DNA of 63,540 bases, counting the filler, from Reclinomonas americana ATCC 50394 (Eukaryota): the NCBI GenBank assembly GCA_048213135.1. It is 9 parts of 3 records of this genome, joined end to end, with 100 filler letters (N's around TTAATTAATTAA, not from the genome) between each part and the next. Parts side by side here need not be neighbours in the genome. Positions count along the whole stretch, not along the records: positions 53,547 to 59,364 come from PS015131.1; 8 more parts are not named here. One strand, given 5' to 3'. Positions 57,505-59,020 of this stretch are shown here, one piece after another (within the stretch, counting starts at the first letter, position 1; every line of letters starts with the position of its first letter). The notes under the pieces are model-generated. The model was not told the DNA's origin, did not search any database, and saw nothing but the letters and a program-made list of their open reading frames with translations. A program made the translations under genes and the position numbers.

Positions 57505-59020
57505 TCACTCATCCCTCTCCTCCCGCTGGAACAGCAGCGTCAACATCGCCCCCGACAAGCGCAGCTTCAACAAGCAGTCGCAGATCAGGTACAGCACCAC
57601 CTGCACGCAATCAACAGTCAGCACCCCCCCACACCTTCTCCTCTCCTCCCCCCTTTCCGCCCATCACAAACCTCGGTGGAAAAATCGACCACACGCCACC
57701 CCTCGTGCCCGAGCATCCACACCACGCCAAATGCGTTGCACAGCACGGCAAAGTGCACAAAGAGCGACCACGACGAGGGACGCAGCATGCGGTACACCAG
57801 ATACAGCGTCACGCTAAGTGCGCCAAAACTCATGGCCAACCAGCCAACCTTGAGGCTCATCGTCGGGGCGATCTGTGCACGCAAGAGTGAATGGCGAGTG
57901 TGACTCACACAAGTCCACTCACTCTCTCTCTCTATCGTACCTCTCCCAGGTAGCCCAGATAAGCCATCGTCCACGCGGACACGGTGCCGAGGGCCACCGC
58001 ACGCATCTGTCACGCGTGTTGGAAAATAGGTCGCACATTTGGCTGCTTCTTCTCCTTCCTCTTTCCTTGTTCTCATTCGTCCATTCTTTTTCCTCTTCGA
58101 GGAGGTAGACAAGATGAAGAAGAAGAAAAAAGAAGGAGAGAAGCAAGAAGAGGAACAAGAAAGATGACGAGCAGAAGGAGGAGAACAACAAGAGGAACTA
58201 GAACGAGGAGAGGAAGAAGAGNNNNNNNNNNNNNNNNNNNNNNNNNNNNNNNNNNNNNNAAGTAATAAAAGAAGAAGAGAAGCAAGATCCTCCCTCCGCC
58301 TCTCCTCTTTCTCATCCTCTTCCTAGTCTTCATCTTTTCTTGCTTGTCTCCTTCTTCTTTTGCTTCTTCTTCATCTTGTCCACCTCCTCCTCCTTTTTCC
58401 CCTCATCCTTTGTGTGCCTCTTCATGCTTCTTGTACCTCTTCGTGCGTCTCTTATTCTTCTTTATTTCTTCTGCATCTTATCCACCTCCTCCTCCTCTTT
58501 CTACACCCCCATCTTCCCCCTGTCTCCATCCTTCTTCCTCTCCTCTTTCTCCTCATCCTTCTTGTACCTCTTCTTTACTTCTTCTTCATCTTGTCCACCT
58601 CCTCCTCCTTCTCTTTCTCTTCCCCCTTCTTCCCCCTGCCCCATTCTTCCTCTCCTCTTTCTTATTCCTCTCCTTGCTTCTCCCCCTTTTCTTGCTCTCC
58701 TCCTTCTCCCCCTCTTCCTCTTCATCTCCCATCCGCACCTTGTCACCCCTGCTCGCCACCACCTCCGTGGTCAGCGCAAACGCCGTGAGAATGCAGGGAA
58801 ACGCCGTCGAGTACTCGACGTAGCGCGCCACCGAGTGCGGGAACGCATTCATGTACACGGAGAGGTAGCAGATGGCGGCGGCGGCGCACATGCACGACAG
58901 GCACAGGCAGGCCTGGGGGAAGGAGGTGAGTGAGATGGTGACACTCGCTCTCTTGTCACTCTGACACCTACGGAAAGACAACTTCTCATCTTCTTCTCAG
59001 CGAAGGGCTGAGGAGGCGTT
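57505..59020 (-). CDS. Microbial (type-1) rhodopsin, helices B-G; helix A exon missing at scaffold end
   Basis: Five exons give xTPPQPFAEKKMRSCLS|ACLCLSCMCAAAAICYLSVYMNAFPHSVARYVEYSTAFPCILTAFALTTEVVASRGDK|MRAVALGTVSAWTMAYLGYLGE|IAPTMSLKVGWLAMSFGALSVTLYLVY...LCNAFGVVWMLGHEGWRVVDFSTE|VVLYLICDCLLKLRLSGAMLTLLFQREERDE*. This is colinear with bacteriorhodopsin YLSM, ARYADW, GSEG and LDVSAK. Confidence 0.88.

Follow-up and report, generated by a model that had tools for sequence, protein, structure and literature searches.

A putative orphan type-1 rhodopsin homologue with an unusual retinal pocket, encoded by an intron-split gene of Reclinomonas americana

Introduction

It is mainly divergent protist lineages that have supplied new rhodopsin functions and optogenetic tools; the apusomonad channels are a recent case, according to the account in PMC12557545. 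As described there, apusomonad rhodopsins (ApuRs) carry a fixed Gln at the position of bacteriorhodopsin (BR) D96, giving the motifs DXQ or XTQ, and a second fixed Gln in the middle of helix A; identity between members falls as low as 24%, and in some of them the T89 position is occupied by Ala. The account in PMC4585134 describes perfect conservation of W86, W182 and Y185 among ion pumps and names D96 as the proton donor. G. theta is reported in PMC7714340 to contain 42 rhodopsin-like genes, most with low similarity to the rhodopsins of other species; nine of the 42 lack the retinal-binding lysine, and six of these nine are expressed. Here, a rhodopsin-like gene is analysed that lies on the minus strand, at positions 57505 to 59020 and possibly beyond, of a 63,540-nucleotide stretch of DNA from Reclinomonas americana ATCC 50394 (assembly GCA_048213135.1; the whole stretch is referred to below as the window). 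The predicted product is an orphan, stand-alone type-1 rhodopsin homologue with an unusual retinal pocket, to be regarded as a lead rather than a result, as it depends on one unsupported gene model from an assembly with gaps. Protists commonly carry divergent rhodopsin-like genes, as the G. theta inventory in PMC7714340 illustrates, which tempers the surprise of finding an orphan gene of this kind.

Results

Gene model

Direct reading of the minus strand gives four open fragments (E1–E4), bounded by canonical splice signals and joined in phase 0 at all junctions. A further, tentative exon (E0) precedes them. All introns are GT..AG, and three of them are 59–71 nt long. GC3 denotes the GC content of third codon positions.

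58972..59163, minus strand: tentative candidate exon E0, 64 amino acids (aa); first ATG of the open frame at 59163-59161, donor GTAGGT at 58971
58913..58971, minus strand: intron 0, 59 nt, GT..AG; exists only if E0 is real
58739..58912, minus strand: exon E1, 58 aa, helices B and C; GC3 0.90
58007..58738, minus strand: intron 1, 732 nt as assembled, GT..AG
57941..58006, minus strand: exon E2, 22 aa, helix D; GC3 0.77
57873..57940, minus strand: intron 2, 68 nt, GTACGA..CACAG
57672..57872, minus strand: exon E3, 67 aa, helices E and F
57601..57671, minus strand: intron 3, 71 nt, GTTTGT..GTGCAG
57505..57600, minus strand: exon E4, 31 aa followed by TGA at 57507-57505, helix G; GC3 0.94

The original prediction had split the gene into five exons. 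Four of these are borne out by the phase-0, GT-AG-bounded fragments, while the fifth, starting at 59020, is one possible reading only, since the frame continues open to the ATG at 59163. Intron 1 is of low complexity, with tandem units of 113–116 nt, and contains an assembly gap of 38 N at 58222-58259. As the profile alignment described below crosses the E1/E2 junction without missing residues, there is apparently no exon hidden in this gap. On the coding strand, the intron is purine-rich before the gap and pyrimidine-rich after it, the two halves resembling inverted low-complexity arms, and such arms may have caused the assembly to break there.

Homology to type-1 rhodopsins

Reference rhodopsins were collected by two motif scans of prokaryotic genomes, which yielded 221 loci; 184 of these had an open reading frame (ORF) of 190–360 aa with the motif correctly placed, and all 184 match the haloarchaeal BR profile at E ≤1e-3. 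Our own profiles were built from 88 (BR profile) and 66 (broad profile) prokaryotic rhodopsins, the latter being <65% identical, and 35 of the 66, all matching Pfam Bac_rhodopsin (35/35), formed the alignment A1. E1–E4 were joined by coordinates in a script before the profile comparison. The joined exons scored 24.9 bits against the haloarchaeal BR profile (E 5.5e-10 at Z=1), the best of 200 composition-preserving shuffles reaching 6.4 bits. Against the broad profile the score was 32.3 bits, rising to 34.7 bits (E 4.8e-13) when E0 was included; of 200 shuffles 194 were reported, the best at 5.9 bits, and the reversed sequence gave -0.9. The alignment of the joined protein forms a single stretch, from profile position 13 to 225 with E0, and crosses all exon junctions with no residues lost. 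For scale, bona fide rhodopsins other than BR score 25–50 bits on the BR profile.

The same locus was recovered blindly. In a six-frame scan of the window, in which 1522 ORF fragments were tested for colinear chains, it ranked first for both profiles, and a second rhodopsin-like gene was not found among these fragments; the E3 ORF was the top match to the BR profile among all 1522 (E 0.0098). Individual exons gave marginal but colinear signals. On submission to Pfam, E1 alone matched Bac_rhodopsin as its sole family (E 0.024, 14.6 bits, profile positions 37-92), whereas E2, E3 and E4, submitted singly, gave no Bac_rhodopsin match. The score of E1 by itself stays below the Pfam cut-off of 24.6 bits. 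Aligned to A1 with hhalign, the single exons fell in colinear order, E1 on columns 79-104 (P 0.022), E3 on columns 139-201 (P 0.012, 40% identity over 52 columns) and E4 on columns 211-223 (P 0.028). A phmmer search of PDB chains with E3 retrieved BR 1c3w_A (E 0.19, query residues 6-65 on chain residues 128-193) and 1bct_A (E 0.44), and bacteriorhodopsin chains were the only rhodopsins among the 19 matches at E ≤10; E1 and E4 gave no PDB sequence match at E ≤10. Six designed 'Pizza' repeat proteins stood above BR in the E3 list and were discounted, as their scores are sums of weak repeats.

Joined scores far above those of the shuffles, the colinear exons and the outcome of the blind scan together establish homology of the joined exons to type-1 rhodopsins, colinear from helix B through helix G, in agreement with the initial alignment of helices B–G to BR. 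Colinearity with the family probably extends to helix A as well. The predicted protein lies at the far edge of the type-1 rhodopsin family.

A candidate first exon

Read upstream, the E0 frame stays open until a stop at 59208-59206; the first ATG in it stands at 59163. Residues 21-45 of E0 form a 25-residue hydrophobic segment, a candidate helix A, which is followed by an A-B loop. Helix A, given as missing in the original prediction, therefore need not be so. Joining E0 lifts the broad-profile score by 2.4 bits and moves the start of the alignment to profile position 13; only 5 of 300 joins made with a shuffled E0 matched the real score. The hydropathy plot of the resulting 242-aa protein displays distinct segments for helices A, B, C, E, F and G, that for helix D being weaker. 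Three observations weigh against E0. Its GC3 is only 0.55, a Pfam search with it gives no match, and the hydrophobic stretch is encoded by CT-rich DNA ending in CAG, which could alternatively be an acceptor at 59021. The assignment of E0 as the first coding exon, carrying helix A, is consequently tentative.

Carboxy-terminal end

Helix G in E4 reads D-C-L-L-K, with the Lys codon at 57567-57565 as first reported, and is followed by a 19-residue tail to the TGA. Enzyme rhodopsins such as HKR, Rh-GC and Rh-PDE have a C-terminal kinase, cyclase or phosphodiesterase domain, and here the protein ends at 57507-57505, so the proposal that it is no such fusion stands. In the interval from the stop to the next gene, the five largest ORFs on the minus strand contain no significant Pfam domain, the best match being to an unrelated family at E 0.05, below the cut-off. 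A donor-like GTGAAG overlaps the stop codon; a splice from it that bypasses the stop may be conceivable, though nothing recognisable lies downstream for it to reach. With no effector domain, the protein would signal or transport alone or via another protein.

Retinal pocket

Residue numbers for comparison were taken from the BR, archaerhodopsin and ChR2 parts of two synthetic constructs; BR positions are given first and those of the predicted protein in brackets. The following are kept: R82 (R94), Y83 (Y95), P91 (P103), M118 (M136) and G122 (G140) in helices C–D; W137 (W155), S141 (S159), W189 (W196), E194 (E201) and E204 (E211) from helices E–F onward; and D212 (D219) and K216 (K223) in helix G, the Lys standing four residues past the carboxylate in D219-C-L-L-K223. 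Helix C reads R-Y-V-E-Y and then A-F-P (Arg codon 58825-58823, Glu codon 58816-58814). Both counterion carboxylates are present, E97 replacing D85 and D219 matching D212. Since the reference set was chosen by its helix-C motif, the invariance of R82, Y83, D85, W86, T89 and P91 within it is built in and is not evidence.

Much of the remaining pocket differs from BR. The changes are Y57L, D85E (E97), W86Y (Y98), T89A (A101), T90F, L93I and D96A (A108) in helices B–C; D115A, I119A, W138L (L156), T142F and M145L in helices D–E; and W182C (C189), Y185F (F192), P186G (G193) and A215L (L222) in helices F–G. Helix F reads V-L-C-N-A-F-G-V-V-W at 57746-57717, ending in the retained W189, and continues M-L-G-H-E-G, in which the Glu occupies the E194 position. 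The map agrees with the substitutions initially proposed for helices C and F, and the description of the pocket as atypical is upheld by the references: W182 is Trp in 183 of the 184, Y185 is Tyr in 179 and P186 is Pro in 177. In place of the aromatic trio W86, W182 and Y185 the protein has Y98, C189 and F192, so that only the Y185 position stays aromatic. In outward pumps the acceptor D85 is paired with T89, and the D96 position holds a carboxylic donor; the corresponding motif here is E-A-A, formed by E97, A101 and A108.

Relatives and phylogenetic placement

Searches with the 58–67-aa exons detect relatives at about 40% identity or more, and distant family members are beyond their reach. 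Within this range, word-indexed searches among longer proteins revealed no relative of E3, and none of E1 at E ≤10. An exhaustive phmmer search with E3 of 1.84 billion representatives gave no genuine relative; three matches at E ≤0.001 were internally repetitive proteins with 6–7 short matched stretches each and were judged spurious. In metagenome contigs, none of 362 pattern matches for E3 and 575 for E1 was confirmed, nor were any of the 21 and 25 in viral contigs. The ESM Atlas, queried with E1 and E3, provided no usable lead. Only three proteins came out of a homologue search aimed at long proteins, namely two synthetic ChR2-EYFP-BR/Arch constructs and an ENA fusion protein. The latter, 532 aa long, has succinyl-CoA-ligase-type domains (PF00549, PF08442) and a C-terminal Bac_rhodopsin domain at 303-525, and may be an artefact of gene calling or an unusual natural fusion.

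Over aligned columns the predicted protein is 19.6% identical to BR, 19.1% to archaerhodopsin and 16.4% to ChR2, compared with 16.3% between BR and ChR2. Its identity to the 184 references reaches at most 23.1% (haloarchaeal), with a median of 17.4%. In a tree of this protein and the 66 prokaryotic representatives, a sampling to which the eukaryotic clades (channelrhodopsins, ApuRs) are external, its end branch has a length of 5.71 changes per column, 15 times the median of 0.37, and no grouping is supported. The amino-acid composition of the protein is deviant in this dataset.

Scaffold context and evidence for a nuclear gene

The window contains eight identical joints, each composed of 44 N, TTAATTAATTAA and a further 44 N, and is thus made up of small scaffolds concatenated end to end.

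9861-9960, 16949-17048, 24018-24117, 39075-39174, 49456-49555, 53447-53546, 59365-59464 and 62429-62528: joints of 44 N/TTAATTAATTAA/44 N

Gene neighbourhood and strand are consequently uninformative across joints, and the mixed strands of genes, considered as a clue to genome organisation, were dropped for this reason. The rhodopsin-like gene lies on a 5.8-kb scaffold piece at 53547-59364. Past 59365, on the 5' side of the gene, a different scaffold starts, and the window yields no more upstream sequence. At the edge of that adjoining piece there is a perfect (GT)58 microsatellite (59501-59616).

Over the coding sequence, GC content by codon position is 0.53/0.46/0.78, and that of the introns 0.47–0.61. 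GC3 is 0.77–0.94 in E1–E4, and 0.65–0.85 in other coding ORFs of the window. Introns of similar kind occur in two other genes. On the same scaffold piece, about 1.1 kb downstream and on the same strand, lies an RBX1-type RING-H2 gene (54700-56368, minus strand, ATG at 56368) with at least four introns. Two of these are long and filled with GA/CT microsatellites, and one has a 20-N gap; the donors are GTCAGG, GTGAGT, GTTTGT and GTGAAT, the acceptors end in GCAG, and the short introns measure about 60–65 nt. One 26-aa exon of this gene matches zf-rbx1 (E 4.9e-05). On the neighbouring piece, an alpha-amylase (GH13) gene (51757-53058, minus strand) is interrupted by an 84-nt GT-AG intron at 52575-52492, and its two halves are colinear on Pfam Alpha-amylase (profile positions 152-193 and 255-393). 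As the introns of both genes are alike, the intron style of the rhodopsin-like gene is that of the genome. Together with the GC3 of the core exons, this shared style fits a real nuclear gene, and prokaryotic contamination is excluded as its source.

Some further features of the window were recorded. The last exon of the RBX1-like gene is unlike the usual RBX1 C-terminus, and in the interval between this gene and the rhodopsin-like gene, units of about 150 bp, 66–79% identical, form a degenerate direct repeat (56477-57040). Elsewhere, a long ORF with a Galactosyl_T domain (44485-45855, plus strand, E 7.1e-07) shares a scaffold piece with one encoding an ADP-ribosylglycohydrolase domain (46693-47259, plus strand, E 8.1e-22).

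Discussion

Favoured reading

Taken together, the data allow the locus to be read as a nuclear gene that is intact and split by introns. Its product would be a seven-helix, stand-alone protein of some 242 aa, homologous to type-1 rhodopsins but highly diverged from them. We give this reading about an even chance of being correct, an estimate that applies jointly to the whole of it, including the retinal binding and the non-pump function considered next. Most likely, retinal would form a Schiff base at K223, with E97 and D219 as the counterion complex. Isomerisation by light would then lead to proton transfer, with E97 or D219 as the acceptor. A108 at the D96 position would leave no cytoplasmic proton donor, and with A101 at T89 the partner of the acceptor would be gone. 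The aromatic clamp around polyene and ring would be replaced by Y98, L156, C189, F192 and G193, and the bulky L222 would precede the lysine. With no cytoplasmic donor and a rebuilt clamp, slow reprotonation and a shifted absorption are to be expected, and the photocycle would presumably be slow and unlike that of BR. Such a protein would be better suited to sensing, with a second protein as its partner, or to weak or passive ion conduction than to efficient outward proton pumping.

Several results weigh against this reading. No single exon attains the curated Pfam gathering threshold of 24.6 bits, a statement that concerns single-exon submissions only, and on the broad profile the joined protein reaches 34.7 bits, half the 67.7 bits of ChR2. 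Two of the 184 references likewise have Ala in place of D96, and the release glutamates E194 and E204 are kept, so that slow outward proton pumping is possible. Only 7 of about 19 positions that we take to be the retinal contacts of BR are identical, which makes retinal binding uncertain. The long branch and the deviant composition fit relaxed constraint as well as they fit deep divergence. Finally, the protein, metagenome and viral searches all ended without a relative, which leaves one isolated sequence, for which conservation and selection cannot be estimated.

Alternative explanations

The protein could be the first known representative of an undescribed lineage of stand-alone eukaryotic rhodopsins in which the Schiff-base chemistry, with Lys, Glu/Asp counterions, Arg and release glutamates, is kept and the aromatic clamp rebuilt, an unusual pigment of unpredictable function. 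We consider this possible, if doubtful; the uncharacterised protist clade suggested in the original prediction is not established by one sequence for which no search returned a relative. It could also be an opsin-related protein that no longer binds retinal, the rhodopsin fold being reused for a light-independent role in the membrane and the lysine merely retained. Replacement of most of the ring and polyene clamp (W86Y, W138L, W182C, P186G, A215L), the very long branch and the deviant composition would suit a retinal-free protein, and the expression in protists of lysine-less rhodopsin-like proteins (six of nine in G. theta, as reported in PMC7714340) provides a precedent. Conversely, the loss of lysine that defines such proteins has not occurred here, and K223, D219, E97, R94 and Y95 are kept together, which would be unexpected had the Schiff-base region lost its role. 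Loss of retinal binding is thus rather unlikely. The extreme divergence and the lack of detected relatives might also be those of a recently inactivated or unexpressed relic, i.e. a pseudogene with a frame open by chance, and the uncertain first exon with its GC3 of 0.55 and the gapped, low-quality assembly are in keeping with this. Yet 243 codons without a stop over five exons, splice sites that are all canonical, a GC3 in E1–E4 equal to or above that of other window genes and the retention of functional core residues make a relic unlikely.

A less exceptional origin would be that of a distant member of a described protist family, such as the ApuRs or another channel or sensor clade. ApuRs diverge down to 24% identity and some have Ala at T89 (as described in PMC12557545), the exon searches are blind to relatives so distant, and Q37 in the candidate helix A lies one turn from the fixed Gln of ApuRs. 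Nevertheless, the protein has Ala where ApuRs, by the same description, fix Gln (D96), with E-A-A in place of DXQ or XTQ; the rhodopsins matched in the PDB at E ≤10 were BR only, for E3, and none for E1 and E4; and a literature search for rhodopsins with an 'EAA motif' gave one paper only, which was unrelated. Membership of a described family is therefore quite improbable. The remaining explanation is that there is no gene at all and that chance resemblance or an assembly artefact is responsible. The marginal single-exon matches, the choice of exons by eye and the N gap within the longest intron could be cited in its favour. It is made highly improbable by a joined score 26–29 bits above the best shuffle, by the selection of the same locus in the blind chain scan and by the agreement between reading frame, splice sites and GC3 periodicity.

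Significance

If the protein binds retinal, it would test the need for the 'invariant' aromatic pocket, as lysine and counterions are kept while W86, W182 and P186 are gone, and new spectral or kinetic behaviour would be possible. Should it belong to an undescribed lineage, its pigment could be unusual in colour, in isomer preference or in kinetics, and might act as a sensor, a channel or an inward or weak transporter. If retinal is not bound, the protein would represent a lysine-retaining intermediate toward opsin-related proteins.

Comparison with known systems

The BR and archaerhodopsin pumps include the best-matching references, and the predicted protein resembles them in helix order, loop lengths and its stand-alone form of about 240–250 aa with a short tail. 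It differs in being encoded by a eukaryotic, intron-split gene and in having Ala at the T89, D96 and D115 positions and Glu at that of D85, and in the tree no supported node unites it with the haloarchaeal clade. With ChR2 it shares Glu at the D85 position (ChR2 E123), Phe at Y185 (ChR2 F226), Ile at L93 and a non-carboxylate at D96. Conversely, W124, W223 and P227 of ChR2, which correspond to W86, W182 and P186, are not shared, nor are the helix-B glutamates, and F102 and A133 replace the C128/D156 pair. As in cation channelrhodopsins, Glu stands at the D85 position, but helix B has no internal carboxylate, and the 19-residue tail contrasts with the long C-terminal region of ChR2, in line with the initial claim that a channelrhodopsin tail is lacking.

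Like the ApuRs, compared here by their description in PMC12557545 only, the protein is a protist rhodopsin homologue without close kin elsewhere, with Ala at the T89 position, as in many members, and no enzyme domain. ApuRs are highly divergent among themselves and often have long C-terminal regions, whereas the E-A-A motif, with A108 in place of the Gln at D96, is here combined with a short tail. In the candidate helix A, L33 aligns to the M20 position and Q37 stands one turn away, in a region where the alignment is of low confidence. In its putative, divergent rhodopsin fold and degraded retinal pocket the protein recalls the Rh-noK and fungal opsin-related proteins, which are common in eukaryotes according to PMC7714340. 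Those proteins by definition lack the helix-G lysine, whereas K223 and the set of counterions are present here.

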